Assembly (NCBI GenBank): GCA_020697715.1
Contig: JAEHCO010000006.1
Coordinates: 1-64,000 of the forward strand
Direction: 5' to 3'
From: Methanobacteriota archaeon
GTDB taxonomy: Archaea > Thermoplasmatota > Thermoplasmata > SG8-5 > JAGLSY01
Length of the DNA: 64,000 nt
Made by a program: the position numbers and the translations under genes. The notes beneath the pieces are model-generated. The model did no database searches, was not told the origin of the DNA, and saw nothing but the letters and a program-made list of their open reading frames with translations. Each line of letters starts with the position of its first letter. The first letter of the stretch is position 1. Below, piece by piece: positions 13,249-56,058 of the stretch.

Positions 13249-13254
13249 GGTATA

Positions 13255-14424: not shown

Positions 14425-14429
14425 GCGAG

Positions 14430-16643: not shown

Positions 16644-16655
16644 AGAAGAAATGTA

Positions 16656-18005: not shown

Positions 18006-18006
18006 A

Positions 18007-20036: not shown

Positions 20037-20054
20037 ACGTCAAAGAAAGTTGCC

Positions 20055-21251: not shown

Positions 21252-21279
21252 TTATAGTGATTATATTATCCGATAATAG

Positions 21280-22467: not shown

Positions 22468-22523
22468 TTGTCTGAGAATTATAGATAAACCTAATTATTC
22501 ATCTTTATTAGTTTAGGTTATAC

Positions 22524-22604
22524 ATGAATGACAAGATTCCTTTGTTAAAGCCATACTTTGATTCAGAAGAACTTGATGAAATTATAATGTTAATGAAGAG
22601 GTAA
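22524..22604 (+). pseudogene. Remnant 5' end of a DegT/DnrJ-type sugar aminotransferase
   Basis: Translates MNDKIPLLKPYFDSEELDEII, then stops after 26 codons; resembles the typical IPxxKPxFxxEE start of this family. Confidence 0.55.
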
Positions 22605-22704
22605 GGCTTCGTCTTTGGCTATAGATTATTCTTTTGTTGAAATATGCATAGGCACTATTTTTATATAAGAGAGGCAATAAATATGAGGTTATGAGACATT
22701 AATA

Positions 22705-23775
22705 TTAAGAATATTTTATTTGTTTATTTTTCATCTTCTTTTTATACCATATATTTGGTTGTCCAGTCCAAAAATCACATCCCTTGCAATCGGGAATTTT
22801 GTCCCATTGACCTGATAAATGTAATTCTCTTAAGGTATTTAACTTCGTCCCAAAATAGACTTCACGCAATGGTTTATCTTTTATATTGCCCAGTGATAAT
22901 GAGCCTTTTTCACGAGATGATAAGCCAATACAACATGGATAAATATTACCATTTTTGTCTATTGATATTGTTGTCCATAAATTATAACATGGATATCTTA
23001 TTATCCTATTTTTTTCAATTGTATTTTCTTCAATTTCTAATTCATCAAGATTTATTTCGCCTGACCAATTTACTAAAGGGCGAACATGGATCAAATCATT
23101 TTCTTCAATAAGGGGACTCCAATCTTTTTTGAATTGTTGTACTTCATCTTTAGTCTTAGCAGTCTCTAATATTTGAATGATGAGTCTTGGGTTTTCGACA
23201 CCATTTGATTTTCTTATTTCTAAAAAAGTTTTTATATTTTCAACAACTAAATCAAACTTATCATCCCCCATTAACCATTTGTAGGTCTCAGGTGTTCCTG
23301 AATTTAAACTTATTAATAATCTATCACCAATATTATTTAACAAATTGACTAGTAATAAAGAATTACTTTTATTTAATAAAATTCCGTTCATATCAAAAAT
23401 TATTGGAATGCCTGGGCATTTTTCTTTGGCATATATTATTGCCTCAGATAGATGAGGATAAAACAAGGGGTCGCCAAGACCCACAGGAGTCAATGTGGCA
23501 GATTTATTCAAATTATTAGAAATATCGTCTATTATTTTTTTATATAACTCAATATCGATATCACCAATGTCAAGATCTTTCATATTTGGACGAGGGCACA
23601 TCCGACAAGTTAGATTACATTTATTTGTAAGTTCAATAATTATTGCGTAAGGGAAATCCTTTAGTATTTGATTTCTTAACATCATGAATCTCTCTTTTTT
23701 TATTTTTTCTCTATATAAAGACGTAGAGGAAATTTTTTGTTTAACTGGCTTAGGTATTAGATTTTTCAAACTCAT
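22705..23775 (-). CDS. Radical SAM protein with SPASM/twitch domain
   Basis: CNLTCRMC; C-terminal YPC..LW, GNIYPCC, LGNI, CKGC. Confidence 0.92.
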   Translation of the reverse strand: MSLKNLIPKPVKQKISSTSLYREKIKKERFMMLRNQILKDFPYAIIIELTNKCNLTCRMCPRPNMKDLDIGDIDIELYKKIIDDISNNLNKSATLTPVGLGDPLFYPHLSEAIIYAKEKCPGIPIIFDMNGILLNKSNSLLLVNLLNNIGDRLLISLNSGTPETYKWLMGDDKFDLVVENIKTFLEIRKSNGVENPRLIIQILETAKTKDEVQQFKKDWSPLIEENDLIHVRPLVNWSGEINLDELEIEENTIEKNRIIRYPCYNLWTTISIDKNGNIYPCCIGLSSREKGSLSLGNIKDKPLREVYFGTKLNTLRELHLSGQWDKIPDCKGCDFWTGQPNIWYKKKMKNKQIKYS

Positions 23776-23866
23776 TAAAATTCAATATGTATTTAGACTA
23801 TTTGAAATTATCCTCTTAATAAAACAATTATGAGTTTCTTACTTGTGGTTAATATGAAGTATTTGT

Positions 23867-25378
23867 CTATGGCTTTAATTTGTTAAGAAATTTTTTAACA
23901 TCATTTTTTTCAGAATTATCTAGGCTAAATGTGAAAAATAATCCAAAATAAATGCAAACTCCAATAAGCCCTTCAATTCCCAGGGATATAATATTAGTTG
24001 GTGGAAGGAAATTAAGCAGGAAAAACATACTAATGCCCATAATTGCGGCAGGAATATAGGTAGTTATAACCACTGCCATGAAATATTTTCGGAGATTGAA
24101 TCCTAGGTGTTTAATCACATATGAAGCAACAAATGGGGAGCTTACAACCCATGGAATGGCAGTACCCAAAACAACACCAGTTACACCATAATATTGTACA
24201 AGTATCAAACTCAAGATGAGATTGGAAACAGTGACGAAAACCAGCGGTATCAAAATCAACTTATATTTTTCCTGTGCAAACAGAATCTTTCCACTAATTC
24301 CGCCATAAGATGTGAAGAATGTGTAAAATATAAATATCCTGGTTGGGAAAACCATATCCAAAAATTTATCACCCATCCAGAAATGAATTATTGGCTCAGC
24401 AAATACAAAAATCAAAGTCCCAGTTAATAATGCTATAGCACATGTGTATTTAGAACCCCTAATTAACAGACGTTCCAACTCCTCTTTTTTATTCATAGTA
24501 TCTAGTTCGGTAGCAGCTGGAAGAAGTGCACTTTGAGGAAGTAAAGTAGCAGTGCTGACAAGATCAAATAATTTTCTAGCAACTGCGTAAGATGTTATAG
24601 CCCCTACTGAAACATAAAAGCCTACTAAAATCCTGTCCAAACCTAACATTAGAATTCCCATTATTTGGCTGATAAAAATTACAGAGCTGAAAGTGAATAT
24701 TTTCTTCAATGTGGAAAAACCCATATATTTGAATCTTAAATCCAGATAGGGTAAAAGACGTTGAACAGGAATAACCAGGGCAATCTGACCAATTGCACCT
24801 ATTACTATTCCCCAGAATATTATCTCTGTTATTCCATAACCACTGATTAAGATCAATACTGTGGCAATTGCATTTATAATACTAATAATAAAAACCCTGA
24901 CTGCATTTATGTCATGTCTCTGCATACCAGATAGTACCGTGGCGAAGCTACGCATGGGCCATGATGTTAAAGCACCAATAGCAACAAGGTAAGCGATTAA
25001 GCGAGCTTTATCACCTTGGCTTTGATCTATGTTAAATATATCAACGAAAAAAGTTCCAATGATCATTATGGATATGAATATCACAATGCCCACACATAGA
25101 TAGAATATGAAAGTGGAATTCACCATTTTATTAATGGTTTCTTTATCATCCTTAGCATTGAATTCTGCTACGTATTTAACCAGAGCGCTTCCAACTCCGA
25201 AATCCAGCAAGCCAAAGTATCCAATAAATGCCCCGACAAGGAGGTAAACCCCATAATCTTCAACACCGACATAGCTGACGATAAATGGGAACAATAAAAA
25301 CCCAATAATATATTGTGAAAATTTCAATAGAGTATTGGCAATAGTGTTTTTAATAATCTTTTTCTTGACACTTGCCAT
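23867..25378 (-). CDS. wzx: Oligosaccharide flippase (Wzx/MOP family)
   Basis: Many TM segments, YGVY, LLDFGV, DRILVG; likely start ATG 25378. Confidence 0.88.
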   Translation of the reverse strand: MASVKKKIIKNTIANTLLKFSQYIIGFLLFPFIVSYVGVEDYGVYLLVGAFIGYFGLLDFGVGSALVKYVAEFNAKDDKETINKMVNSTFIFYLCVGIVIFISIMIIGTFFVDIFNIDQSQGDKARLIAYLVAIGALTSWPMRSFATVLSGMQRHDINAVRVFIISIINAIATVLILISGYGITEIIFWGIVIGAIGQIALVIPVQRLLPYLDLRFKYMGFSTLKKIFTFSSVIFISQIMGILMLGLDRILVGFYVSVGAITSYAVARKLFDLVSTATLLPQSALLPAATELDTMNKKEELERLLIRGSKYTCAIALLTGTLIFVFAEPIIHFWMGDKFLDMVFPTRIFIFYTFFTSYGGISGKILFAQEKYKLILIPLVFVTVSNLILSLILVQYYGVTGVVLGTAIPWVVSSPFVASYVIKHLGFNLRKYFMAVVITTYIPAAIMGISMFFLLNFLPPTNIISLGIEGLIGVCIYFGLFFTFSLDNSEKNDVKKFLNKLKP

Positions 25379-25553
25379 ACAAGTATGTTGAGATTTAGCT
25401 TGATATAAATAAGTTTCCATTTCAAATATATAAAATGTATTGCCAGATAAAGAAGAAAAAACGAAAGGTTTAAGTGCGATTGTATATATGTGTATTTAAC
25501 TTGGATGACTAGGTGGAGTTTAGTCAACTAAATATAAAGGAGTGAGGAAAAAT

Positions 25554-30811: not shown

Positions 30812-33800
30812 ATGAATGACGTACTTGTTGGGAGAAAGGAAGAGACAAGGATATTGAGCGAGTTCATGGACAATTCACTAAATGGAAAGGGTGTGGCTGC
30901 CATTATCAAAGGCGGCGCGGGCATTGGGAAGAGCAGGCTTATTGCGGAATTCAAGGAAATCGCCGAAGGAAAGGGATTGAAGATCCTCACAGGAATAGCA
31001 GATGCCTATACGTCAAGACCATTCCATCTTTTTCGTGAGATCCTTGATAATATTGATGAAGAGCCAATGCTCAGAGATTCGGAATTCACTAACTTTGCCA
31101 AAGTATTTGCCGTGAACAAGGGCAGCCTCCTTATAGCCGATGCGTCACCGCAGGATGAAAAAGGCCTTGATTCGGACATATTTGCAGGAATGCTCTCTGC
31201 GGTTCAGGATTTCATCAGAGATTCCTTTGGCGGGACTGGCAAGCAGTCATCTGGATTGGGGAGATTGGAATATGGGGATCTGAAGATCATCATAGAACAT
31301 GGAGAAAGTGTGTTCCTTGCAGTTGTTTTCAGAGGTAAAGAACATCCCAATATGAAAAATTCCATCAGGCTGGCTGTCAATGACATAGATGAGGCTTGCG
31401 GAGACACCCTCGCTGATTGGAATGGCAATATGGAACATGTAAAGCCAGCGCAGGATATCCTGGAAAAACTGGTGGATATTCGCTTTCTGGTCAGAAAGGA
31501 TCTGGAAGGTGTGAAGCTGGATGCCGAGAGGATACGTGTGGCAGACTCGGTGCTCGATCATCTAATATCAGTATCTGATGAGCAAACTCTGGCCATATTA
31601 TTGGAAGACATGCATTGGGCGGATGAATCCTCGCTATTCGTCCTCCAGTACTTGATGAGAAGTATATCGAATAGACGAATTATTATCCTTTCCACACTGA
31701 GAACTGGAGAGGTGGAGAGCGTGGAAGAATTTGCTGATCTGATGATAGATGAGGGCAGTTGCAAGGATATTGCCCTTGAAAGACTGGCATCCAAGGATAT
31801 ATTGAACATGGTGGAGAACATATTACCAAAGCATGGACTTGGCATGAATTTCATAGATGAGCTTGAGTCCCGATGTGAGGGAAATCCCTTCTTCATCCAG
31901 GAGATTTTGAGACACATGTTATTGGATGGGGCCATTGTTCAGGAAGATGGCGGATACTCATTGATAGGGGATATGTACATGATCCCAGACAATATCGAGG
32001 AATTGGTCCACAGAAAGCTGGAGGCCATAGAGCCAGATGCATTGTCCATAGTGGAATTCTCATCATGCATTGGGAGGGAATTCGATATCAATATACCAGG
32101 ATCATCGAGAATGGTCAGTGATATAGGATCCGCGATAAGCAAACTGGAAGATTCTGGCCTGATACAGATCATTAATGAAAAAGCGATATTCACCCACGCT
32201 TTGTTCCAAGAGGTGATATACAAAGGGATAACAGATCGCTGGAGATCCGTGTACCATCAGAACATTGGGGAGATATACGAATCATTGTACAATCATGATA
32301 TGGTCATATTTGAATTGGCCAGACATTTCTCCAGGTCAAGGAAGCATAGCAAGGCCTTTGATTATTGTTCCAGGGCGGGAGAGAGATCCGAAGCCATGTT
32401 AGCTCCTGAACAGGCCATTGACTATTACCTGGACGCGATAAAGGCATTGGACAATATGAGGAAGATCACTGGCACGAACGAGAGCAGAGGCGAGCTCCTG
32501 CAAAGGTTGGGAGATGCCTATTCACTTATCAGCGACTTCGATAAGGCCATAGAGAAATACGATATGGCCTTCGAATTGGACACAGATATTGATACCATGG
32601 CCATGCTGCACAGGAAGAGAGCGGGCATATTCGAGAAGCGAGGAGATTATATTGAGAGTGGTTTGGAATGCCAGAAGGGACTGGATCTACTGGATGGGAA
32701 GATAAATGCCGTCACTGTCAACCTAATGCTTGTAAGATCTGCGAACTTGCTCAGGACGGGATCTGTCGAAGAGGCTGGAGAGCTTGCGAACAAAGCACTC
32801 GGGCTGGCAAAAGAACTGGGCGACAAAAAGCTTGAAGCCAATACCTATCATTTACTCGGAAGTATGGGCCTTATAACTGGACAGTTCGCAACGGCGATCG
32901 AGAACCTTGATAAAGCGATAGGGATAAGAGAGGAGATAGGAGACGAGTCTGGAGCCTCCGCCTCCCTGAACAATCTGGGTATCGCCCATTATTATACTGG
33001 TGATGTGAACATGGCACTGGATTGTTATAGCAAGAGCCTGGCCATATATCAGAAGATAGGTGACAAATATGGAATGGCCTCCCTATTGAACAATATGGGA
33101 GGCTTCAGCCAAGATTTTGGAGAGCTCGATAAAGCACTGGATTACCATATGCAGAGCATGGACATCAAGAAGCAGATAGGAGACAAATACGGTATGGCCA
33201 GCACTTACACCAATCTTGGCATCGTGCACAGAGGCCTTGGCAAGCTTGATGAGGCACTGGAATTCAATCAGAAGGGGTTGAAGCTGGCTACCGAGATCGC
33301 CAATGCAAAGGAGATCACGATTAACATCAACAATATAGGAGAGGCATATTTTGAAAAGGGCGAATACAGCAAGGCCGAAGAGCAATACAAGAAGGCCATC
33401 CTGATATGCCAGGAGTGCAAGGACAAGCATCAGGAATCTCACTCCCTAAGAGGAATGGCCAAGATAAATATCATGATGAAGGATAGTGGAAAGGCCGTGG
33501 AATTTGCAGATGAGGCTTTGGCCATATCCATAGAGATCGGATCACAGGGCGAGGAGTGGAGGTCCAGGAACATATTGGGAGCCGCACTCAGATCATCCGG
33601 ATCATTTGACAAATCCAAAGAGGAGCTGGACAAGGCCCTGGAGATACTAACAGCCACAGGAAGTAGTGAGAAAGAACCAGCGGTGATGTTCGAATTAGGT
33701 CTTTTGCACAGAGATATGGGAAATACAGATGAAGCAAAAAAGAGCTTCTCAGTCGCCAGAGAGATATATGATAAGAGAGGGTATATCAGAGATGTGAGCA

Positions 33801-33835
33801 AGATCGACAAGGAATTGGTCAATCTGAACCAGTGA
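30812..33835 (+). CDS. STAND/AAA_16-type NTPase with C-terminal TPR array and inserted roadblock/longin-like domain
   Basis: VGRKEE, Walker A GGAGIGKS, Walker B LLEDMHWAD, EGNPFF, repeated A.SLNNLG TPRs. Confidence 0.88.
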   Translation: MNDVLVGRKEETRILSEFMDNSLNGKGVAAIIKGGAGIGKSRLIAEFKEIAEGKGLKILTGIADAYTSRPFHLFREILDNIDEEPMLRDSEFTNFAKVFAVNKGSLLIADASPQDEKGLDSDIFAGMLSAVQDFIRDSFGGTGKQSSGLGRLEYGDLKIIIEHGESVFLAVVFRGKEHPNMKNSIRLAVNDIDEACGDTLADWNGNMEHVKPAQDILEKLVDIRFLVRKDLEGVKLDAERIRVADSVLDHLISVSDEQTLAILLEDMHWADESSLFVLQYLMRSISNRRIIILSTLRTGEVESVEEFADLMIDEGSCKDIALERLASKDILNMVENILPKHGLGMNFIDELESRCEGNPFFIQEILRHMLLDGAIVQEDGGYSLIGDMYMIPDNIEELVHRKLEAIEPDALSIVEFSSCIGREFDINIPGSSRMVSDIGSAISKLEDSGLIQIINEKAIFTHALFQEVIYKGITDRWRSVYHQNIGEIYESLYNHDMVIFELARHFSRSRKHSKAFDYCSRAGERSEAMLAPEQAIDYYLDAIKALDNMRKITGTNESRGELLQRLGDAYSLISDFDKAIEKYDMAFELDTDIDTMAMLHRKRAGIFEKRGDYIESGLECQKGLDLLDGKINAVTVNLMLVRSANLLRTGSVEEAGELANKALGLAKELGDKKLEANTYHLLGSMGLITGQFATAIENLDKAIGIREEIGDESGASASLNNLGIAHYYTGDVNMALDCYSKSLAIYQKIGDKYGMASLLNNMGGFSQDFGELDKALDYHMQSMDIKKQIGDKYGMASTYTNLGIVHRGLGKLDEALEFNQKGLKLATEIANAKEITININNIGEAYFEKGEYSKAEEQYKKAILICQECKDKHQESHSLRGMAKINIMMKDSGKAVEFADEALAISIEIGSQGEEWRSRNILGAALRSSGSFDKSKEELDKALEILTATGSSEKEPAVMFELGLLHRDMGNTDEAKKSFSVAREIYDKRGYIRDVSKIDKELVNLNQ

Positions 33836-45657: not shown

Positions 45658-47229
45658 GTGTTAATCTCCATTCTTGACGGATATACAGATGAACCTTCGA
45701 GGCTGGGAGTTCCTCCCTTCATAGCAGGATATCCAAGATACATCGCGGGTGCTGTGATATCAGCTGGCCATGATGTAGAATACATCACCATCGATCAGTT
45801 GAGAAAGGGTCGTACACCTTCATCAGAACTGCTTTTCATAATATCAAATGCGAATGTCCCGGGCAAGTATCTCAGAGGAACACCAATATCAGAAAGAGAG
45901 CTATTGCAGATAAGAAAAGACTTCAAAGGCCAGGTCCATGTATGGAGTTCCTTGGATGCAAAGGGCGACCCAGATGCCTTGGCCTATGACATTCTCACGA
46001 ATGAATATGAAAAACCAAGAAGAAGAACATTAAAGGAATGGAAGAATTGGTCCGAAGCAGGAGCCAGTATGTTAGAACAGCATCCTGATTTCCCCCAGCC
46101 CGCGATCATGGAGATGGATATGTCCTTCGGATGTCCGAGATATGTAACTGGAGGATGTAGTTTCTGCCCGGAGATCGGATTTGGCCAGCCTGTTTTCAGA
46201 CCAATAGCGGATATAATATCCGAGATGCAAGCACTCGTCAAACAAGGAGCTACCAATTTCAGGTTGGGTGGCCAGTCCTGCCTTTTCACCTATATGACGG
46301 AAGAGCTGGGTGAGGATGCCCCGAGGCCGAATGTCAAGGCACTGAAGGAATTATTCGAAAAGATCGGCCAGCTTGATGGCATCGAGATCCTGCATACTGA
46401 CAATGCCAACCCGGGAATCATGGCCAGCCATCCGGAAGACACGAGGGAGATCCTCGAATCCCTTGTCAAGGTATGTACTGGAGGAAATTTACTCTCAATG
46501 GGCATGGAAAGCGCAGATCCAGCAGTCATAAAGGCGAACAACCTCAATGCAACTCCTGACCAGGTCATGTCCGCGATCAGGATGGTAAATGATATCGGTG
46601 GCGAGAGGGCGGACAATGGAATGCCAAAACTGCTTCCGGGATTGAACCTTGTCGCGGGCCTTGAAGGCGAGACTGTAGATACCTTCGACCTGAACTTCAA
46701 ATTCCTCAAAGAGGTACTGGATGAGGGATTGATGTTGAGAAGGATCAATATAAGACAAGTGGCCTCCACAAGAAAGAATTTTGGGCCATCACGACTGAAA
46801 AAGGATTTTATCAGATTCAAGAACCTGGTGAGAGAGGAGATAGATGCCCCTATGTTGAAGAAAGTGATACCCACTGGCACGATATTGAGAAATGTCTACA
46901 TGGAGACCAATAGAGGCAAAAGGAGCTTTGGAAGGCAGATCGGGACTTATCCGATACTTGTTGGTATGGAGTATGAAGTGGAATTGGAAAGATCGTTAGA
47001 TCTCCGGATAGTATCACATGGACAGAGGAGCATCACCGGGATAGAACATCCCTTTGATATCAATAAGGCGAAAATGCAGGCACTTGCCTCACTGCCAGGC
47101 ATTGGGAAGAAAAGAGCGGCAAGGATAATCAGATCCAGACCATATGGTTCGATTGAAGAATTGGAAAAGGTAATAGAAGATCCTTTGGTGATGGAAGGTC
47201 TTGAGGCCTTAGGCCTTGTGTTCAGATAG
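45658..47229 (+). CDS. Archaeal radical SAM protein with C-terminal helix-hairpin-helix (COG1031-like)
   Basis: DGYTDEP..LGVPP, GCPRYVTGGCSFC, RRINIRQV, GRQIGTYP, LPGIGKKRA. Confidence 0.85.
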   Translation: MLISILDGYTDEPSRLGVPPFIAGYPRYIAGAVISAGHDVEYITIDQLRKGRTPSSELLFIISNANVPGKYLRGTPISERELLQIRKDFKGQVHVWSSLDAKGDPDALAYDILTNEYEKPRRRTLKEWKNWSEAGASMLEQHPDFPQPAIMEMDMSFGCPRYVTGGCSFCPEIGFGQPVFRPIADIISEMQALVKQGATNFRLGGQSCLFTYMTEELGEDAPRPNVKALKELFEKIGQLDGIEILHTDNANPGIMASHPEDTREILESLVKVCTGGNLLSMGMESADPAVIKANNLNATPDQVMSAIRMVNDIGGERADNGMPKLLPGLNLVAGLEGETVDTFDLNFKFLKEVLDEGLMLRRINIRQVASTRKNFGPSRLKKDFIRFKNLVREEIDAPMLKKVIPTGTILRNVYMETNRGKRSFGRQIGTYPILVGMEYEVELERSLDLRIVSHGQRSITGIEHPFDINKAKMQALASLPGIGKKRAARIIRSRPYGSIEELEKVIEDPLVMEGLEALGLVFR

Positions 47230-47277: not shown

Positions 47278-47379
47278 TTACAATATATCAAAAACAAACA
47301 TTGCCGCCATCAGAAGCCCGAACATGAACAGTGGGAGACTATTCATCAATTTCTCGCCTATGACCTTCAGCTTTTTCAT
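47278..47379 (-). CDS. Putative 33-aa single-TM small protein (not in ORF track)
   Basis: MKKLKVIGEKLMNSLPLFMFGLLMAAMFVFDIL, downstream of and co-oriented with the giant gene. Confidence 0.45.
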   Translation of the reverse strand: MKKLKVIGEKLMNSLPLFMFGLLMAAMFVFDIL

Positions 47380-47444
47380 ATGGTCAAATGATGGAGGGTT
47401 CATGTTAATATATTGTGCGTTTTTATTATCATTTTTGGTTTCGT

Positions 47445-50400
47445 TCATTCATTCACTTCCTTTTTTTCCTTTCTTCTAAATCCTATAAATGTTATACCCA
47501 TTATCCCCAGAGCCAATGGCAATATGGATGAGAATTCCGGAATTATGACAACGGTTATGGTTGCGGAGTCCGATTGCTCAGCGAACTGGTATCCACCAGG
47601 TGATGTGTAGTTAAGGGAAGCCCAGTTCGTTATGGTGCCAGCAGGTGCGAGAGCATCCACCAGGACAGTGATCGTGAGGGAATTGACCGTGTTCTTTCTC
47701 ACATTGGGGAAATACCAGGAATAATCATCGACCACTATCGAATCAGGTGCCGAGCTGGAAGATACGTATGTCGTGCCAGCAGGTATGGTATCATTTATCC
47801 ACACATTGGCAGGTGCCCCGCCTGTATTGTTGTACCAGATGGTGTATACCACTTCTGTTCCAGGAGCGGCAGTGGTGGTGTTCGCCACCTTCACGATGGT
47901 GATATCAGGTCTCGCACATTCCGTGGATGCGCTATCTGAATCACTGCCATAAGGAACTCCTGCGGCATCTGTGAAGTCCACATCCACATTATTTACGAGG
48001 TTGGTACCATCAGCCACTGTGTCATCCACCTGGACCACGATGTCGAAGGTGATGGTGGTTCCGCCGGCCAGGTTCGTGAATGGATAGGTGTATGTCTGCC
48101 CATTTATAGTGGGGGATATACCACTTGTATCGCTTATGTAAGTGACACCAGTGGGCAGAGTGTCATTCAGCCAGACATACGCGGATGTTGCGGAATTCCT
48201 CTTATTCTCCAATGTGATGGTGTAGGAGATATAATCTCCAGGTTCGGCAGTCCGGAGATCCGCATCCTTAGAGACAGATACCTGAGGAACTGGAGGTGGT
48301 TTGGGCAATGGTACATCACCAGGAGGTGCGGAACGTGTCCCAGATGGCGCCTGAGCATTGTGAGACATCGTATCATCACTCTGATCTATCGAATGCTTCC
48401 AATCTGATATCTCGATGAATACCGAAAATTCATCCATGGAGTTCAGACCCATCATGGATAGAGGGATGCCCATTTCCATCCTGTGATAATCAAGATCAGA
48501 TGATATGGTCCCAATATATTCCCATGGTATGGAATTGGTTGGCAAGTATGTGAAAAGTTCACTGGATATGATCTTATTGTTTCTTCCGGCGATCAGAACC
48601 ATGTGATCCGCTCCCAAGATCCCACCTTTGTAATCACCTGTGCTTACATCGTTATCTGAGTCAATGAAGATGCTTAGATAGTCCTGTCCGATGATCTCCA
48701 CATGCCCTATTGGGCCGATATATCTACTTATGAAGTTCCCTGAATAATTTGGGTCAAAGTCCAAAGGTATGGTCGTATTCAACCACATATCTGGACCATC
48801 ATTATTGTAATCAATAACACCATCGCCATCAATATCCCCATTGGAATTCTGGTCATCTATGCCATCATTATTGAAATCATAGGCATAGCTTCCATTTGGT
48901 CCATCGATATTGTTAGGGACACCATCATTGTCAGAATCCGGCAGAGGTGCAGGTGTGATGGGTGACACATTGGTAACAGGCGCAATGCCTGGACGATATC
49001 TTATCGTCGGCACATCCATGCCTCCCATTGCCACCCCAGAAAGTGAAGTGTATATCAACAGGCGATCATCCACTGACATCCTGTAATCTCCTATATCGAC
49101 ATTACGATTGATACGGCTGGTGTTGGTGTCCGAGGCACCAACAACATCATTGGCTGCATCGATATTGCTTCCTATCCCAAGCCAATCTCCGAAAGCACCA
49201 TCAATTTCGATGTTCTCCGGATCTCCAATATTGTGAACTGCTCCTGAATTCTCAGCAATATGTACCTTGATACCATCTGGAACCAGAACATCAGTAAGAT
49301 AAACACCGACATTGGGGGCATCTGTGGATACAGGTATATCGAAGATCAGGAAGATGGATACCCGCTCTCCAGCCTCTATTGTCAAAGGCCTATCGAAATT
49401 AATAGTAAAATCACCACCATCACCTGTCATGGTGGTCTCCAATACCTGGTCACTGGAAGCATCGTATATCTGGTTGCCTTCATCCACAACCAGTCTGAGA
49501 CCTATCATTTCTTCATAACCAAGCTCTCCCCTGGAGCTGAATGCAAGGCCTTCGACATCCGAATCCAGACCAAAGCTCTCCAATAGTAAAAGGCTGGCAT
49601 CATGATCTCCAGGCTGAATTATATCGCTGTCAACAGCCTCGGACATGCTCGCTCTCAATGTTCCTCTCAGGGGCGAGATTACAGAATCGGATATATCAAA
49701 GTGCCCGAAGGAATCCTGCATCATGATAGCATAAGATGGCTGGGATGAGGGTGTCAGTTCATCAAGGATCACCCTTATCTCCATCTCATTATCATTGACA
49801 GCTGCATTTGCTTCATGGGAGTATTCAAATGCATTCCAATCATTATGATCCATATCATTATTGAACCTCTTCAGATCTATCTCGGATATTCTATTTCCCC
49901 ATCCTTGAACATCCAGAAGTACATCCGCACCCATATTGGATATCTCATATCCCGTGGACGTATCTGAGTCCGTGTCGATGAATATGAAAACAGAATCCAG
50001 ACCTCTAACAGAATCACTTGATGAACCTCCCAGAAGATCACCTTCGACCATGATGTAAAAGTACATGTTCGGAGGGCGGAAATTGACCCTTGTTTCAATG
50101 ATGTTCAGATCATCATTGGATATCTGGTCAATTGAAGAATCATGATAGGATGTGAATTCCCTCCACTCGGAGAAATCACCATCGATATCCATGCCATATG
50201 TGTCATCACCTATCATGGAATTGGTCAATATAGGAAGGAACAACATGATGAATATCAGAGCGGCCATCATGGTCACTCTCATCCTCCAAGCGGATGACGC
50301 ATTGGATTTGATGTTCTTACGGTGCGCCCTGCCCCGGTTATTTGCGAGAGCATCACCATTTATCAGACCCATGCCATTTACAAGACCATTGACACGACCA

Positions 50401-53400
50401 TTGACCAGTCCTGAGAGGCGGCCATTGATCAGGCCATTGGTGCTACCAGTGGCATGCCCGGTTGTTCCAAAAGCATGACCATTGATCATACCGCCAGAAC
50501 CATTGATGAGGCCATTCACCCTGCCATTTACAAGACCATTAACACGGCCGTTCACAAGGCCATTGATGCCACCAATGACGCGACCATTGACCAGCCCATT
50601 GGTCCTTCCATTGGTCTTACCGTTCACGCGGCCATTGGTTTTCCCAAAGGCATGGCCATTTGTTCTTCCATTGACGTGGCCATTGGTCTTGCCGTTCACA
50701 CGACCGTCGACTGTTCCGACAGCACGGCCATTGACCTTGCCATTCACACGCCCAGTCCCATTTATCAGACCTGCGGGCGTCTTGCCAGTTTTCTTAAGTG
50801 ACTCTGCCTCGATCTCCTCATAGGAGCTATGGATCACCTGGTCATAGCATTCGAGAGCGGCCTCATGCAGACCCAGCTTATCCAATAATTCTCCCTTTTC
50901 CATAAGCAGGCTTTCAGTTCCCGGGAAAAGTTCCAGGTCTTTGTCTATGTCTATCAAGCGGGCTTTTATTATCCCAACACCCGGATCTGGAGCCTCATCC
51001 AGCTCGAGGTCCAGAAGATCGTCCTCATCATCGGGAATAACAGATCCATGTAATATTTCCAATATCTGTTTTTTGTATTCCGGGGCCTTCTCATCATCTA
51101 ACTCCGCTGCCTTATCATAGCATGATATTGCTTCATCAAAACTGCCGGCCTTTGCCAGGAGCCTTGCTTTCCTTGCCCAGTGAATGTGATTATCTGGGTC
51201 TTCTTTGATCTTCTCATCCAGAGCATCCAAGTCCTCGAGGATAATGACCTCGCCAATATCCATGTCTATATCTACGACATCGGGTAAAGAGAGATCATCA
51301 TCGGTCTCATCTTCATCCATTCCAAGGAATTGTTTTATGAAGTCATCGGTCGGGCCAGAAGGTTTTGTATCCTCTTCTGGCTCATCACCAAGTTTTGACC
51401 AGCGAGATAGGAAATCTTTGGATATCCCTCTCTTTTCCTCTTTGGTCTCGAGCTCTGGCAGGATAAGATCAGATTCCATTTCCTCAAGAACATCCATTTC
51501 GGATAATTCTTCATCAGTATCGTCGTCTGCAAGTGAGTCCACCATGGATCCCAGGCCGACCTTGGGATCGGGCTCGGCCTGATCAACTAGGATATCTGAA
51601 TCGTCACCATCTGGCTCATCATCATCATCTTCCTCATCGATCAAAATATCAATGGGATCGTCCAGGTCCAATGAGATATTTTCAATAATATCTTCATCAG
51701 AAATTATCTCGGATAATATTGGCTCATCGATATCAAGCTCAAGTTCATCTGTTTCCGTCGTGAATAGCTCGATGCCATCTATATCGAAGCTGTCATCCTG
51801 GGCGATGATATCCTCCAGGAGTTTTTCTCCCAGTATATCTCTTTCATCCAGATCATCAGATGCGGCATCTGCAGTTGCATCATCTTCAGATACTGCATCT
51901 GATTCGAATCCATCAAGAACATCCGCAATGTCCAGATCGACAGCGATGTCCTCAAGGGTGATGATATCAGGTTCATCAATATCAAGTTCAAGCTCATCGG
52001 ATACTTCCTCAGCATCACTTATTATGATCCCACAATCCGGGCATTCTGAAAGTTCTGCCTGGACAAAGGAGCCACAGCCAGGACACAGGTTGAGTTCCGA
52101 AACACTCTCCTCCCATTCCATATCCTGAATGAGCTGGGCTTCAGCATCCTTTTTATCACTCACCTCGACCAGAAGGTCAGAAAGCTCCTCGATCTCCCGT
52201 TCAGCCCTGACCTCTTTATCCAGGTCGATCTCCACATCCAGGTCTTCATCGTATACGGCTCCACAATTGGAACACTTGCCAGCATCCTCAGCCAGAAGAG
52301 CACCACATTCGACACATAGGAATATCTGGGTCTTCTCTTCCTTGTACCAGTATCCATCTGGTTCATCAGGATCTATACTGACATCATCGGATGGATCAAG
52401 CTGTGAGATAGGAATATCACCATCTGGCTCGAATTCCGCATGGCATATGTCACAACTGCTTGCTCCGCCAGATAAGAAAGCACCGCAATTAGGGCAGAGA
52501 AATAGCTCAGCTTCATCCTTGTACCAATGGCCATCAAGATCTGTATCGGTCTTTTCCACCAGCATGTCGGCCAGTTCCTCTGTATCCGCATCCAGCTCAA
52601 GAGCAGGTTCTTCAATATTGGGGTCGAACTTCACACCACAATTATTACAACTACTGGCATCCTCAGAGATCAGTGCCCCACACTCGGGGCACATGAAGAA
52701 CTGGCTCTTCTCCTCTTTGTACCAGAAGCCATCTGGAGCATCTGGATCCCTCGCAATTTCAGGTTCCATATCCGTATCTGGCTCGACCTCTCCATCATCA
52801 GCCTCGAACACTATGCCACAGTATTGACAACTATCAGCGGCAGAAGATATGAAAGACCCACAATTGGGACAGAGAAATAGCTCGACCTCATCCTTGTACC
52901 AGTGGCCATCCAGCTCATCCAGGTCAGATGATCCTCCCTCCAGTTCATCATCGTGGAGGAGCATATCTGCCAGTTCTTTTAACTCACTGCCATCTTCAAT
53001 AGATATGGCAGTTCCCAATTCGATCTGATCATCATCGATGCCATGGTCATCATCGAGATCAAGGTCCGCATCTGCGATCATGGTCAATTCATCTGTCAGG
53101 ATGTCCTCATCTTCAGACCCTATTGGGACGGTTGCTTCATCTGCACTCGCAACCTCTTCTTCATCATGGCTGGTGAACTCTTCCAACATATCGAGTATGT
53201 CTGGATCGGATGTCGTGGTCTCTGGCGGAAGTGGTTCCTTATCAAGCTCCGATCTTAGCTTTTCTTCTGTAAATGACAGGCCACATGTATCACATTCCGA
53301 GGCATTTCCGGATATAAATGCACCACAATCAGGACATAGGAATAGCTCGGCCTTGTCCCTGTACCAGAAGCCATCTATGTCATCATTCTTTTCCTCTTTT

Positions 53401-54356
53401 TCAGTGCCATCGACCAATAGGTCCATAAGGTCTTCCGACTCCTTATCTGGCTGGATCTCTGGTTCGGTCTCATCCATATCGAACTTGATCCCGCAATTAG
53501 AGCATTTTTCAGCGTCCTCCGAGATCAGGGAGCCGCATTCGGGGCAGAGTAAGAACTGACTCTTCTCTTCCTTGTACCAATATCCATCCGGAGCATCGGG
53601 ATCCCTTGCGACCTCCAGGTCAGGACTGGCAGCTACCTCATCAGCAGTCTCATCATCAGCCTCGAACACTACTCCACATTTGGAGCAATTGCCCGCATCT
53701 GAAGGTATGAAAGACCCACAATTGGGGCAGAGGAAAAGCTCGGCCTCATCCTTGTACCAGTGGCCATCGATATCACCATCTGCCTTTTCCACCAGCATAT
53801 CTGCCAGTTCCTGTGATTCCGCATCCACTTCGGAAGTTTCTGGAGATACATCCTCCATATCGGGGTCGAATTTCACGCCACAATTATTACATTTACTGGC
53901 ATCCTCAGAAATAAGTGCCCCACAATCGGGGCACATGAAGAACTGGCTCTTCTCCTCTTTGTACCAGAAGCCATCTGGAGCGTCTGGATCCATCTCCTGG
54001 GCAGGGGTTTGGGAAACCTCCTCCTCGCCTTCGAAGGCGATGCCACAATTCGGGCAATTGTCTGTATCCTCTCCCAGAAGTGATCCACACATTGGACACA
54101 TTGTCAGTCCTGTGCTTGTTTCCAGCTTATCGGATGGTTCTTCATCCACATCCACCATCATCTCCGCATAGTCCCTTATGCTGTATGCGAGACTCTTACC
54201 TATGCCAGGTATCCCAGAGAGTTCATCAAATGGACATTCGACAAGTTCCTGCAATGACCTGAAACCCGCGGAGTATAGAATTCGAGCTTTTGCTCTTCCT
54301 ATACCCGGTATGAGCAATAATTCTACAAGATGGTCATCACTAGTAGACATAAGCAA
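47445..54356 (-). CDS. 2303-aa membrane-spanning multidomain protein: HhH, 10 zinc ribbons, acidic region, TPR, xxNG repeats, TM, extracellular domains, 2x DUF11, PEF-CTERM
   Basis: IPGIG x2; ten CxxC-x10-CxxC; AISCYDKA/ALECYDQV TPRs; GLVN/GRVN repeats; TM MAALIFIMLFLPIL; PG..I.YTI..N..V.I.DTLP; IPEF-hydrophobic-RRKEKK. Confidence 0.88.
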   Translation of the reverse strand: MLMSTSDDHLVELLLIPGIGRAKARILYSAGFRSLQELVECPFDELSGIPGIGKSLAYSIRDYAEMMVDVDEEPSDKLETSTGLTMCPMCGSLLGEDTDNCPNCGIAFEGEEEVSQTPAQEMDPDAPDGFWYKEEKSQFFMCPDCGALISEDASKCNNCGVKFDPDMEDVSPETSEVDAESQELADMLVEKADGDIDGHWYKDEAELFLCPNCGSFIPSDAGNCSKCGVVFEADDETADEVAASPDLEVARDPDAPDGYWYKEEKSQFLLCPECGSLISEDAEKCSNCGIKFDMDETEPEIQPDKESEDLMDLLVDGTEKEEKNDDIDGFWYRDKAELFLCPDCGAFISGNASECDTCGLSFTEEKLRSELDKEPLPPETTTSDPDILDMLEEFTSHDEEEVASADEATVPIGSEDEDILTDELTMIADADLDLDDDHGIDDDQIELGTAISIEDGSELKELADMLLHDDELEGGSSDLDELDGHWYKDEVELFLCPNCGSFISSAADSCQYCGIVFEADDGEVEPDTDMEPEIARDPDAPDGFWYKEEKSQFFMCPECGALISEDASSCNNCGVKFDPNIEEPALELDADTEELADMLVEKTDTDLDGHWYKDEAELFLCPNCGAFLSGGASSCDICHAEFEPDGDIPISQLDPSDDVSIDPDEPDGYWYKEEKTQIFLCVECGALLAEDAGKCSNCGAVYDEDLDVEIDLDKEVRAEREIEELSDLLVEVSDKKDAEAQLIQDMEWEESVSELNLCPGCGSFVQAELSECPDCGIIISDAEEVSDELELDIDEPDIITLEDIAVDLDIADVLDGFESDAVSEDDATADAASDDLDERDILGEKLLEDIIAQDDSFDIDGIELFTTETDELELDIDEPILSEIISDEDIIENISLDLDDPIDILIDEEDDDDEPDGDDSDILVDQAEPDPKVGLGSMVDSLADDDTDEELSEMDVLEEMESDLILPELETKEEKRGISKDFLSRWSKLGDEPEEDTKPSGPTDDFIKQFLGMDEDETDDDLSLPDVVDIDMDIGEVIILEDLDALDEKIKEDPDNHIHWARKARLLAKAGSFDEAISCYDKAAELDDEKAPEYKKQILEILHGSVIPDDEDDLLDLELDEAPDPGVGIIKARLIDIDKDLELFPGTESLLMEKGELLDKLGLHEAALECYDQVIHSSYEEIEAESLKKTGKTPAGLINGTGRVNGKVNGRAVGTVDGRVNGKTNGHVNGRTNGHAFGKTNGRVNGKTNGRTNGLVNGRVIGGINGLVNGRVNGLVNGRVNGLINGSGGMINGHAFGTTGHATGSTNGLINGRLSGLVNGRVNGLVNGMGLINGDALANNRGRAHRKNIKSNASSAWRMRVTMMAALIFIMLFLPILTNSMIGDDTYGMDIDGDFSEWREFTSYHDSSIDQISNDDLNIIETRVNFRPPNMYFYIMVEGDLLGGSSSDSVRGLDSVFIFIDTDSDTSTGYEISNMGADVLLDVQGWGNRISEIDLKRFNNDMDHNDWNAFEYSHEANAAVNDNEMEIRVILDELTPSSQPSYAIMMQDSFGHFDISDSVISPLRGTLRASMSEAVDSDIIQPGDHDASLLLLESFGLDSDVEGLAFSSRGELGYEEMIGLRLVVDEGNQIYDASSDQVLETTMTGDGGDFTINFDRPLTIEAGERVSIFLIFDIPVSTDAPNVGVYLTDVLVPDGIKVHIAENSGAVHNIGDPENIEIDGAFGDWLGIGSNIDAANDVVGASDTNTSRINRNVDIGDYRMSVDDRLLIYTSLSGVAMGGMDVPTIRYRPGIAPVTNVSPITPAPLPDSDNDGVPNNIDGPNGSYAYDFNNDGIDDQNSNGDIDGDGVIDYNNDGPDMWLNTTIPLDFDPNYSGNFISRYIGPIGHVEIIGQDYLSIFIDSDNDVSTGDYKGGILGADHMVLIAGRNNKIISSELFTYLPTNSIPWEYIGTISSDLDYHRMEMGIPLSMMGLNSMDEFSVFIEISDWKHSIDQSDDTMSHNAQAPSGTRSAPPGDVPLPKPPPVPQVSVSKDADLRTAEPGDYISYTITLENKRNSATSAYVWLNDTLPTGVTYISDTSGISPTINGQTYTYPFTNLAGGTTITFDIVVQVDDTVADGTNLVNNVDVDFTDAAGVPYGSDSDSASTECARPDITIVKVANTTTAAPGTEVVYTIWYNNTGGAPANVWINDTIPAGTTYVSSSSAPDSIVVDDYSWYFPNVRKNTVNSLTITVLVDALAPAGTITNWASLNYTSPGGYQFAEQSDSATITVVIIPEFSSILPLALGIMGITFIGFRRKEKKEVNE

Positions 54357-54467
54357 GTATTGTTTGTCTTACTAAGTATATAGGCATTGTATCTCGAAAA
54401 GTAGATGTGCTATCTGCAAAATATGCGACAATATTACAAAAAGTTGTTAATCATCATATCTCGATCT

Positions 54468-55178
54468 TCATATCTCAAGAGCCGTGGAAAAGGGATCCAA
54501 TCCGATATCCATAACATGTATCTCGGACTTTTGACCGATCTCCAATATCAATCGATCATTGGAACTCTTGATGACCTTGGGATCCTCGCCACCAGACCTC
54601 AATTTTTCAATGATGAAATCTCGAAAAGCTTTTGTTCGGTCATATTTGGACTCGGACATTTCCGCAAGTAATCTTGTTGGATAATATCGAGTATGGGTTC
54701 CTTCGTTCATCACACTGACAAGACCGATATTGATCAGTTTATTGACCATTATGGACAGGCCTTGATGAGTCATTTCAAAATCCTGGGCATATTCTTTCTG
54801 GGTCATGCCAGGCTCATTTATTATCTTGATAAAAAGAGCTTTTGTCTTTTTTGAAGACAAAACGCAGAAGATATTGACATCCTCATCATCTATTTGACCC
54901 TCTGGCCACATGGATCTCTTGCGGCCTAATTTTCTCTCGACCAAGAATCCCGAGGCCACGAGTTTGCCAATATGCCATTTGACGGTCGTATCACTCACAT
55001 TCAAGATATCGGAGATATCCTTCAGTCCCAGACATGGATGAAAAGTGAGAAGAGAAAATATATTTCTCCGGATCTTATTATCGAATATCCTGGCATTCTC
55101 AGAAATTCCACCAGGTCTCTTGATATTATCAGGTTCCTTGATCGCGCTTTCCAGAGCTTTTCCTACATTCCTACTCAT
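54468..55178 (-). CDS. Double winged-HTH transcriptional regulator
   Basis: RRNIF..HP..TVKWHIGKL..G and PGMTQKE...L...GLV; start ATG 55178 after AAGGAG, 1 nt past the kaiC stop. Confidence 0.82.
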   Translation of the reverse strand: MSRNVGKALESAIKEPDNIKRPGGISENARIFDNKIRRNIFSLLTFHPCLGLKDISDILNVSDTTVKWHIGKLVASGFLVERKLGRKRSMWPEGQIDDEDVNIFCVLSSKKTKALFIKIINEPGMTQKEYAQDFEMTHQGLSIMVNKLINIGLVSVMNEGTHTRYYPTRLLAEMSESKYDRTKAFRDFIIEKLRSGGEDPKVIKSSNDRLILEIGQKSEIHVMDIGLDPFSTALEI

Positions 55179-55179
55179 C

Positions 55180-56058
55180 CTAATCTCCTTGATGTTCAGA
55201 CAATATGGCATTGATCAACTCTTCGGTATTGACCTCTGAAAGGTCCCTATCTTTGAGATCCTTCAATGAATTTGCCAATCTTTTGAAAACATAGGACGGT
55301 AACTGCCCTTCGATCTTATTGAGATCAGTTGCGAATTGACCAACTTTCTCTCGTTTTGGTATCAATGGATAATCTCCAGCCTGTACAACAAGACCAAAGC
55401 CTTTCATCAAAGAATATGGATGCTCCAGTTCACTGTGGGCACTGGATCGGCACTTGATTATCTTCAGCTTTCTCTCCAATCTGGAACCTGCTTCGAAGCT
55501 ACTTCTAAGGTGAATGACACAATCAGACAAGTACATGGGGATCACAGTTTCATTACCCGACAGGTCGCCAACTGTGCCATGCTCCTCCAGTGTGCAGAGT
55601 ACTGTTCCGACCTTTCTTGTTTCCTTCAGCATGAATCCTATCAGATCACGTTGCTCATATCTGTCGGAAGTGGACCACACCACTGGAGTGAGAGGATCCA
55701 CAGCAATTCGGGCATTAGCTCCCTTCCATGAGGATACGAAATCAGGTAATTCCTTCTTTATGAACTGAGAGAACTCCTGACCACTGGCATCGATAAAGAC
55801 AAGCTTGTCCTCCTCGATGAAGTTCAGGATCTCCGTCCAACCCATCTCGATAGCTTCCTTGATGATCTGCTCCTTGTTCTCATCAAGGCTTACGAATATC
55901 CCTTCCTGGCCTGCTTCGAGGCCGCGTCTTATGAATTGAGTTGCGAAGGTGGTCTTTCCCGCCCCGCTCATCCCTATGACGACAGTGGTAGAATTCTCAT
56001 TGATGCCTCCATCCAGAAGGGCATTGAGTCCGTAAATACCACTGCTTATTTTCTTCAT
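55180..56058 (-). CDS. Single-domain KaiC/RAD55-family ATPase
   Basis: SSGIYGLNALLDGG, Walker A GMSGAGKT, VSLDE, IAVD, IIKCR. Confidence 0.92.
   Translation of the reverse strand: MKKISSGIYGLNALLDGGINENSTTVVIGMSGAGKTTFATQFIRRGLEAGQEGIFVSLDENKEQIIKEAIEMGWTEILNFIEEDKLVFIDASGQEFSQFIKKELPDFVSSWKGANARIAVDPLTPVVWSTSDRYEQRDLIGFMLKETRKVGTVLCTLEEHGTVGDLSGNETVIPMYLSDCVIHLRSSFEAGSRLERKLKIIKCRSSAHSELEHPYSLMKGFGLVVQAGDYPLIPKREKVGQFATDLNKIEGQLPSYVFKRLANSLKDLKDRDLSEVNTEELINAILSEHQGD

Follow-up and report, generated by a model that had tools for sequence, protein, structure and literature searches.

A conserved Thermoplasmatota gene trio of a KaiC-like ATPase, a double winged-helix protein and a giant membrane protein, and its possible role in surface-to-gene signalling

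Here we describe three adjacent genes from a Thermoplasmatota archaeon of the SG8-5 lineage, found on the minus strand of a DNA stretch of 64,000 nucleotides (nt) that we call the window (positions 1 to 64,000 of contig JAEHCO010000006.1, assembly GCA_020697715.1). The genes encode a single-domain KaiC-like ATPase, a double winged-helix protein (dwHTH) and a giant membrane protein with two predicted membrane anchors. They are a conserved, co-inherited unit that is specific to Thermoplasmatota. Our tentative reading, to which we give somewhat less than an even chance, is that the unit may serve surface-to-gene signalling built on a KaiC-type ATPase. The conserved module itself is well supported, and the mechanism that we outline for it is what we infer from its parts.

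Gene layout and conservation of the trio

Three co-oriented open reading frames (ORFs) occupy the minus strand between 47.3 and 56.1 kb of the window:

55180 to 56058, minus strand: single-domain KaiC-like ATPase of the RecA superfamily, 292 amino acids (aa), with a conserved C-terminal helical tail of ~60 aa (PF06745, E 1.3e-35)
54468 to 55178, minus strand: double winged-helix protein (dwHTH), 236 aa, basic (HTH_24, E 1e-9, and a MarR_2-like second winged helix)
47445 to 54356, minus strand: giant two-anchor membrane protein, 2303 aa from a TTG start (ORF and domain matches)

This is the arrangement that an earlier note on the same DNA had described, with the KaiC and dwHTH genes 1 nt apart; the gap from the dwHTH stop codon to the giant gene, put there at about 110 nt, measures 111-117 nt. 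The longest ORF of the dwHTH gene is 54468-55211, and the ATG at 55178, 1 nt past the KaiC stop codon, is the more likely start, because relatives are 230-245 aa long and align from there. For the giant gene an alternative ATG at 54350 gives a protein of 2301 aa, which is the length of database entry P0192. An assembly fusion is unlikely to be the source of the giant ORF, since the arrangement recurs in relatives, the internal DNA repeats are diverged (at most 92% identity over 144 nt) and independent assemblies carry the same ORF. In a genome of the same genus the same giant ORF, with ten zinc ribbons and an identical order of parts, lies on a 719-kb contig, and comparable giant ORFs are present in dozens of independent assemblies. 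The earlier note had named an assembly fusion as one of two findings that would undo its proposal, and on this point the evidence favours the proposal.

Patterns taken from the KaiC alignment were used in a public scan of 185,579 species, which gave 211 stretches, and the best 80 of these were examined. All 80 come from metagenome-assembled genomes (MAGs) of Thermoplasmata/Thermoplasmatota, one of which is labelled Candidatus Proteinoplasmatales SG8-5. We regarded a locus as assessable when it had at least 2500 nt of downstream sequence, as was the case for 61 of the 80. The dwHTH gene is present in 56 of the 61 assessable loci of the KaiC subfamily, and the dwHTH gene together with the giant gene in 55 of them, so the gene-neighbourhood search that the earlier note had proposed as a check speaks for co-location. 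Starting from the regulator gives a similar picture. Matches to dwHTH are found in 55 of 61 genomes of a class sample. Out of 61 dwHTH matches in 60 loci from relatives, 40 have a gene of this KaiC subfamily directly upstream and 29 a giant downstream, recognised by a cluster of NG pairs before a transmembrane helix; three more downstream giants in this 60-locus set are interrupted by contig ends or masked bases. A variant in L063/L134 was left out, its gene being broken up by masked bases.

The distribution of the KaiC subfamily within the phylum is patchy. In an even sample of 401 genomes it was detected at E <=1e-90 in 21, and it was not detected in several well-sampled families (0/48, 0/53, 0/36, 0/26 and 0/24). 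A profile search of 1.84 billion representatives found 226 proteins of the dwHTH family at E <=1e-30. Word-based protein searches returned generic names only, such as 'wHTH transcriptional regulator', 'DUF11 domain-containing protein' and 'hypothetical'.

Paralogous modules and natural KaiC fusions

The genome of the window holds a second trio at C11:211720-222239 (locus L009). Its KaiC (221316-222239) is 52% identical to that of the window and its dwHTH (220598-221326) 25% identical. The giant of this trio, designated type B, has 2917 aa (211720-220473) and aligns to the giant of the window with 30% identity over 875 aa. The order of its inner parts differs, being TPR, HhH, one ribbon and TPR; it shares with the giant of the window the NG repeats, the transmembrane helix and the first 650 outside residues, which are followed by FG-GAP, CBM-like and other modules. 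A quick maximum-likelihood tree of 41 KaiCs places all of those beside type-B giants (8/8) in one clade with an SH-aLRT support of 99, and the genomes G000, G003, G004, G007, G012, G014, G016 and G020 are represented in both the A and the B part of the tree. This argues that the whole module was probably duplicated before these families split and that every ATPase has kept the giant it came with.

A third KaiC-linked giant is encoded at C11:61357-68163, where the order is an HTH-like protein, a KaiC (PF06745, E 2e-64) and a giant of 1767 aa. The ecto-core of this giant, that is the conserved outer part, is 39% identical to that of the window, and its first ~220 residues, which have no Pfam match, replace the HhH head. 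The larger stretch C11:55589-68163 (L183) also contains three more KaiC-like genes and a soluble protein of 1186 aa with eight ribbons and TPRs.

A chromosome-level MAG of 5.16 Mb (L160) has a KaiC-dwHTH pair and, after it, a gene for a single wHTH, another KaiC and a giant homologue of 1654 aa. This giant itself begins with a KaiC domain (residues 11-245, PF06745, E 4.5e-24) that has a degenerate Walker A motif, and continues with six ribbons and then the ecto-core. When the ecto-core was used in a word-based search, PF06745 was found in 2 of the 13 proteins at E <=1e-10, HHH_5 in 5 and a subtilase domain in 2 others; the ecto-core is used elsewhere too, since two relatives carry that subtilase domain. 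Among the genomic hints that KaiC-type domains may act at the inner end of the giant, the KaiC fusions are the strongest, and they lend support to the functional coupling of KaiC and giant for which the earlier note had argued. What that note had missed are the paralogous modules, the CBM9-like outside of the giant and the existence of KaiC-dwHTH pairs without a giant.

A further member of the tailed KaiC subfamily was seen at C11:460278-467606 (L010). The KaiC gene (461171-462055, 35% identical) has a V4R protein upstream, and downstream lie proteins of 263 aa and of 919 aa (coiled-coil-like), both without a transmembrane helix or Pfam match. With these different partners it was not counted as a copy of the trio and appears to be a different KaiC module.

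A candidate operator in front of the giant gene

The spacer between the dwHTH and giant genes is about 90-135 nt long in most loci, and in the window it contains two elements:

54436 to 54447, minus strand: palindrome ACAACTTTTTGT (consensus ACAA-N4-TTGT), candidate operator, 64 nt upstream of the TATA box (spacer counts)
54376 to 54384, minus strand: TATA-like box CCTATATAC, predicted own promoter of the giant gene (sequence reading; (C)CTATATA in relatives)

In the window and in AT-rich relatives ACAA-N4-TTGT stands directly after the dwHTH stop codon, and (C)CTATATA follows 64-66 nt further on. The looser form ACA-N6-TGT is present in 29 of the 69 unique spacers, where 50 shuffles gave 2.1 on average and 8 at most, and the strict palindrome in 15 of 69 compared with 0.2; spacings of N5 or N7 are found in one spacer of the 69 each. 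Type-A and type-B modules alike have ACA-N6-TGT in this place, and none of 64 regions upstream of kaiC has it. Among the 40 spacers without ACA-N6-TGT, 12 have GTTAAC at the same place (0.9 in shuffles), and three spacers of another clade have the palindrome GAACCG-N7-CGGTTC. A palindrome that varies between clades and keeps its place is what would be expected of a co-evolving candidate operator. The best reading of these patterns is that the dwHTH protein would control the promoter of the giant gene, and they support the link between transcription factor and giant that had been proposed earlier. In the whole genome ACAA-N4-TTGT has 20 sites where base composition predicts 45, and out of 7 stricter sites one other is clearly intergenic, so that this count revealed no regulon.

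The KaiC-like ATPase and the double winged-helix protein

The ATPase matches PF06745 over residues 5-226 with 123.3 bits (cut-off 26.6). Its motifs GxSGAGKTT (Walker A), SLDE, hhhhDPLTP and TLEEH are invariant in the KaiC alignment of 41 homologues, in which the mean column identity is 51%. With GxSGAGKTT, SLDE and DPLTP assigned the catalytic roles established for the family, the catalytic core, with Walker A, Walker B and the catalytic glutamate, is intact. The tail of ~60 aa is conserved across the alignment and lies outside the Pfam domain. KaiC proteins belong to the RecA/RadA superfamily, and weak matches to RadA and Sms were seen in the model scan. KaiB (PF07689) was not found in the genome of the window, which is 93.8% complete, and no archaellum genes adjoin the trio. 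The tail of the subfamily also occurs in another setting: at L159:12633-17030, plus strand, a beta-propeller/PKD surface protein of 1466 aa ends in 74 residues that match it (profile positions 216-289, E 4e-16).

The dwHTH protein has HTH_24 at residues 45-90 (38.3 bits, cut-off 21.9) and a second MarR-like winged helix at residues 131-167. Its AF2 model (pLDDT 88.8) consists of two winged-helix domains and a small C-terminal beta sheet, and in structure comparison the single winged-helix domains match MarR/ArsR chains at Z 10-12. Against the ArsR/SmtB metalloregulator model NF033788 the protein scores 33.9, below the cut-off of 55. The family is basic, with a median isoelectric point of 9.7 and a median net charge of +11 (n=41), and the W68-H69 pair of the first recognition helix does not vary across the alignment. 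By domain match and modelled fold the protein is of the ArsR/MarR type, with two winged helices per chain, and it is predicted to bind DNA. Foldseek returned tandem winged-helix proteins of many kinds at low TM-scores (ScpB, RPC34/62, TFIIIC, ESCRT-II); ScpB came first with E 1.4e-4, but with a TM-score of 0.27 and a root-mean-square deviation (rmsd) of 10.7, and no ScpA or SMC gene adjoins the dwHTH gene.

A paralogue of dwHTH in the genome of the window lies directly after a small Ras-like GTPase gene (C1:8875-11067). The same pairing is seen at L080 and L088, which are 2 of the 21 KaiC-less dwHTH matches (20 loci). The dwHTH family may therefore work with NTPase switches of more than one kind.

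Architecture of the giant protein

From the N-terminus to the C-terminus, the giant protein of the window is composed as follows:

54153 to 54341, minus strand: (HhH)2 (double helix-hairpin-helix) head, residues 6-68, with two PGIG hairpins (HHH_5, E 7.9e-11)
51990 to 54116, minus strand: ten zinc ribbons with acidic spacers, residues 81-789 (Zn_ribbon_3, E 4.5e-35; DZR, E 1.7e-24)
51399 to 51428, minus strand: motif GISKDFLSRW, of the family [KG][DG]F[LI]x[RK]W, before the TPRs (strict regular expression, 41/86 giants)
50802 to 51251, minus strand: two TPR-like (tetratricopeptide-like) hairpins, residues 1036-1185 (TPR_1, E 5.5e-8)
50346 to 50765, minus strand: basic xxNG tetrapeptide repeats on the inner, membrane-proximal side, residues 1198-1337 (repeat reading)
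50208 to 50291, minus strand: predicted central transmembrane helix, an N-in signal-anchor, residues 1356-1383 (hydropathy scan and flanking charges)
49665 to 50198, minus strand: first CBM9/DOMON-like beta-sandwich (IDGDFSEW...), residues 1387-1564 (AF2 and VIA-align)
49218 to 49673, minus strand: Ig/cohesin-like domain, residues 1562-1713 (VIA-align, Z 8-10)
48354 to 49217, minus strand: second carbohydrate-binding-like sandwich, residues 1714-2001, with an inserted D-rich calcium-loop (DSDNDGVPNN...) (VIA-align)
47547 to 48281, minus strand: two DUF11 repeats, residues 2026-2270 (PF01345, E 1.5e-22; TIGR01451, E 4.8e-19)
47448 to 47546, minus strand: PEF-CTERM-like sorting signal made up of IPEF, a transmembrane segment and RRKEKK (motif and TIGR03024)

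All the inner parts that the earlier note had listed, from the tandem HhH to the xxNG repeats, were seen again by Pfam, by regular expression or by composition. The HHH_5 match spans residues 12-62, and an HhH-like head was recognised by eye in 9 of 9 diverse giants; a single-sequence search found it in 28 of 55. The ribbons number exactly ten by the regular expression CxxC-x10-CxxC, and DG[FHY]WY[KR] precedes all of them except the first and the last; in relatives the number ranges from 1 to 15. Their linkers have 29-39% D+E, compared with a genome median of 14%. The cytoplasmic part as a whole has a net charge of -281 and an acidic fraction of 0.29 (genome median 0.144), and it is net negative in all 68 unique giants (68/68, median -28.5). 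A sequence related to the KDFLxRW motif, FTEDFIAKW, stands at the N-terminus of the type-B giant. The TPR region follows the conserved pattern LxxYDxLLxxDPxLxxAW...LGRxxEA, and for residues 985-1370 the ESM Atlas gave generic TPR clusters only, at low recognition. The xxNG repeats of the 68 unique giants have a median of 16 NG in 86 aa with a dominant period of 4, stop ~16 aa before the transmembrane helix and have a median K+R of 8 with a D+E of 1. The inner scaffold of HhH, ribbons, KDFLxRW, TPRs and xxNG is acidic overall.

The central helix at residues 1356-1383 is preceded by seven K/R within 22 residues and followed by acidic residues, and 43 of the 44 cysteines of the protein stand before it and 1 after it. 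Because of this basic N-side and acidic C-side, and because the cysteines are divided 43 to 1 between the two sides, an N-in signal-anchor fits, which would place residues 1384-2270 outside. The earlier note had put ~900 aa beyond a single transmembrane helix. The helix and the ~900 aa are indeed there; it had missed a second hydrophobic segment at the very C-terminus. That segment belongs to the PEF-CTERM-like signal, to which TIGR03024 aligns over its whole length at 15.3 bits (E 0.018), below the cut-off of 23. The pattern of (I/V)PE(F/L/M), a transmembrane segment and a basic tail recurs in most of the full-length giant homologues examined. As there is a C-terminal PEF-CTERM-like anchor besides the central helix, the outer part is predicted to be held at both ends. 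The genome encodes an archaeosortase A (score 120, cut-off 75) and an ArtC-like protein; the exo_archaeo signature scores 55.8 (cut-off 23) and the archaeosortase C model 64.8 (cut-off 100). The archaeosortase-C-like gene is at C1 5365-6612, ~3 kb from the GTPase-dwHTH pair.

For the outer part an AF2 model of the ecto-core was built from an alignment of 24 homologues (mean pLDDT 81.9). Residues 1387-1564 align with the CBM9 structure 1i82 at Z 11.2 (rmsd 3.4, 151 aa, 17% identity) and also match the heme-binding DOMON-like subunits 2ivf_C (Z 10.4) and 7b04_C; the fold by itself cannot tell a sugar from other ligands for this modelled CBM9-like module. Residues 1562-1713 match DUF4466, CLIPPER, cohesins and the Ig domains of adhesins at Z 8-10. 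The second sandwich, residues 1714-2001, matches the starch-adherence protein Sas6 (7uwu, Z 12.7, rmsd 3.2, 170 aa) and the putative carbohydrate-binding protein 4jpq (Z 11.3), and the aspartates of its D-rich insert are invariant in the 24-sequence alignment. Foldseek of the ectodomain returned integrin-alpha legs and the Ig domains of PrgB and other adhesins at TM-scores of 0.1-0.17, which for this model would point to a chain of beta sandwiches and nothing more. In the metagenomic proteins P0197 and P0199 the CBM9-like ecto-core is fused to FG-GAP repeats and a subtilase (Peptidase_S8).

Neighbouring genes

Directly after the giant gene there is one more short ORF:

47278 to 47403, minus strand: ORF of 41 aa with one hydrophobic helix (ORF reading)

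It is 73% identical to an ORF in the same place of a same-genus genome and has a weak match in one further relative. It is possibly a fourth gene of the unit, limited to close relatives. The left edge at 47278 that the earlier note gave to the finding is the end of this separate ORF and not that of the giant gene.

The neighbours of the trio are PdxS, a peptidase and a radical-SAM protein. The last of these (45658-47229, plus strand) has a C-terminal HhH_3 domain. It lies in convergent orientation to the giant gene and is not kept beside the trio in the loci looked at. At 30812-33835, plus strand, the window encodes an AAA_16 and TPR protein of 1007 aa with a STAND-like architecture. The stretch from ~10000 to 25500 has a low GC content (0.30-0.38, compared with ~0.45) and is dense in glycosyltransferase-4 genes, together with two FemAB-like genes, a GNAT, a radical-SAM/SPASM gene and a polysaccharide flippase. 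The stretch resembles an island for surface glycans and may have been acquired.

Discussion

We suggest that the trio could be a signalling unit that reaches from the cell surface to a gene. The outside of the giant would bind a glycan or another surface ligand. Its inner scaffold would dock the KaiC ATPase and hold the basic dwHTH protein, possibly on the acidic, multivalent ribbon array. ATP turnover by KaiC would then set the amount of free regulator, which at the palindrome would adjust how strongly the giant gene is transcribed, and perhaps other genes too. The receptor or scaffold that the earlier note had imagined between a surface ligand, a KaiC switch and a transcription factor is thereby partly supported: the conserved unit and the links of the giant to KaiC and to the palindrome stand behind it, and the interpretation as a whole goes further than they do. 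A more elaborate form of the same idea, which we consider improbable, is an outside-in pathway without histidine kinases or sigma factors. It would have an integrin-like, two-anchor glycan receptor whose ribbon tail is a DNA mimic that stores dwHTH, and a docked or fused KaiC would load or release dwHTH in response to ligand or pull, with feedback on the promoter of the giant.

Several observations weigh against the signalling interpretation. The trio is incomplete in 6 of the 61 assessable loci (L141, L142, L143, L159, L162 and L174), and in a complete genome of 1.5 Mb the KaiC-dwHTH pair is followed by a ribose-5-phosphate-isomerase-like gene and no giant. Since the pair occurs without it, the KaiC-dwHTH pair does not need the giant, and it would fit that dwHTH is the output of an NTPase switch with the giant as an optional partner or target. 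The genomes surveyed are kin, so that the counts overstate independence; the palindrome counts likewise come from related genomes and were compared with mononucleotide shuffles, which control for base composition only. The transmembrane helices and the topology are predicted by a hydropathy scan and charge only, and the likeness to CBM9 is at the level of the fold, the CBM9 family having no Pfam match on the giant at E up to 0.01.

These points lead to the question whether the giant is a receptor or rather a regulated envelope protein. In the latter case KaiC and dwHTH would answer an internal cue, and the giant would be their main target, a two-anchor structural or adhesion protein whose inner part links the envelope with structures of the cytoplasm or governs how the protein itself is assembled. 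We regard this explanation as credible but unlikely. It is consistent with the pairs that lack a giant, with the dwHTH paralogue that has a Ras-like GTPase as its partner instead and with the restriction of the palindrome to the promoter region of the giant, and an outside that resembles adhesin stalks and carbohydrate-binding modules on an archaeosortase-type anchor would suit such a protein. It does not account well for the natural fusions of KaiC domains to the inner end of the giant, for an inner scaffold that every giant examined retains beside a distal outside that varies, or for the soluble zinc-ribbon/TPR protein that is encoded beside further KaiC genes in the same genome. These three observations would point to direct contact between KaiC-type domains and the scaffold.

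Another possibility, and one that we rate as quite unlikely, is that HhH, RecA-type ATPase and dwHTH form a device at the membrane that holds or moves DNA, for instance in anchoring, segregation or uptake. The two PGIG hairpins of the HhH head are canonical, the KaiC family lies within the RecA/RadA superfamily and this member weakly matches RadA and Sms, and ScpB is among the best tandem winged-helix matches of dwHTH (E 1.4e-4). But the tethering of DNA to the membrane, which the earlier note had offered as an alternative, is hard to reconcile with a cytoplasmic charge of -281, the cytoplasmic part being negative in 68 of 68 relatives. In addition, there is a single central transmembrane helix, the unit has no channel, pilus, nuclease or translocase gene, the fused relatives have a KaiC-like domain in place of the HhH, and the ScpB match has a TM-score of 0.27.

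We consider it very improbable that the trio serves defence or conflict, with a sensor at the surface that sets off a response to viruses under NTPase control. The combination of an NTPase, a wHTH and a variable surface protein is a pattern of some conflict systems, and the distal outside of the giant does vary between paralogues. However, PADLOC gave weak matches only (mad8, 5.7e-6; Csa3 wHTH, 8.3e-11) and none for the giant, the Pfam scan of the three proteins found no nuclease or other effector domain, the trio is flanked by housekeeping genes, among them PdxS and a peptidase, and vertical inheritance of the module reaches back beyond the split of two families. A fusion made in assembly as the source of the giant ORF, or a gene neighbourhood due to chance, has a negligible probability even in a draft genome of 34 contigs, given the same ten-ribbon ORF in the same-genus genome and the independent assemblies, the diverged repeats and the recurrence of the trio.

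The unit is of interest for several reasons. KaiC-like ATPases have been proposed as native signalling hubs of archaea, and hardly any of them has been connected with an input receptor or an output factor. The module is a complete candidate chain that consists of a putative ligand-binding surface protein, an inner scaffold, an intact ATPase, a predicted DNA-binding protein and a candidate operator. The natural fusions and the three paralogous copies in one genome provide built-in comparisons, and the parts are small enough for work with recombinant fragments, though the hosts are uncultured. With its central helix and archaeosortase-type anchor the giant would be a new kind of archaeal surface protein, and it bears on the organisation of the envelope and on polymer sensing in sediments by Thermoplasmata that are wall-less or poor in S-layer.

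Comparison with known systems

As the earlier note had supposed, the architecture does not seem to have been characterised before. Our literature search found no description of the trio, of the HhH/ribbon/TPR/NG scaffold, of the two-anchor CBM9-like outside or of the palindromes, and the supplements of the 2017 hub proposal may tabulate the neighbourhood. This proposal reportedly goes back to Makarova, Galperin and Koonin (mBio 2017). Archaeal KaiC-like ATPases are proposed there as hubs of signal transduction, and inactivated KaiC domains (iKaiC) are described as fused to other signalling parts (as quoted in PMC5847659 and PMC13700489). As far as these quotations go, the proposal involves a single-domain KaiC-family ATPase beside a wHTH and a membrane protein, as in the trio of the window. 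The hub idea is itself a computational one.

The ATPase of the window shares the P-loop family PF06745, the Walker A and B motifs and the catalytic glutamate with circadian KaiC and ArlH. Unlike circadian KaiC, which has two tandem domains, it has one domain in 292 aa, and unlike both it carries the family-specific C-terminal tail. It scores well below the cut-offs of the circadian KaiC models (TIGR02655, 74.5 against 546; NF006799, 109 against 408) and of the ArlH model (NF052589, 38.5 against 215). Residues 1387-1564 of the giant have their fold in common with CBM9 and DOMON-like sandwiches, at 17% identity. According to excerpts of PMC5244752, archaeosortase C recognises PEF-CTERM. The giant has the PE(F/L/M) motif, the hydrophobic helix and the basic tail in common with PEF-CTERM substrates, its own tail scoring below the cut-off. 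Known substrates begin with a cleaved signal peptide, whereas the giant would have ~1350 cytoplasmic residues and an uncleaved signal-anchor.

Another system to compare is RsgI/SigI of Clostridium thermocellum. There a bitopic membrane protein with CBMs outside and a regulator-holding part inside controls genes of the surface machinery, according to the abstracts of PMC10328401, PMC6852018 and PMC4711584. A sigma factor acts in that system where the trio has an ATPase and dwHTH, and no protease step is evident in the trio. The anti-sigma-I domain RsgI_N had no match on the trio proteins in the Pfam scan, and the host is an archaeon with TBP. To our knowledge, archaea have no sigma factors. The likeness would thus be one of function only, between parts that are unrelated in sequence, and in this sense the RsgI/SigI polysaccharide sensors of clostridia may be the closest functional parallel to the Thermoplasmatota trio.

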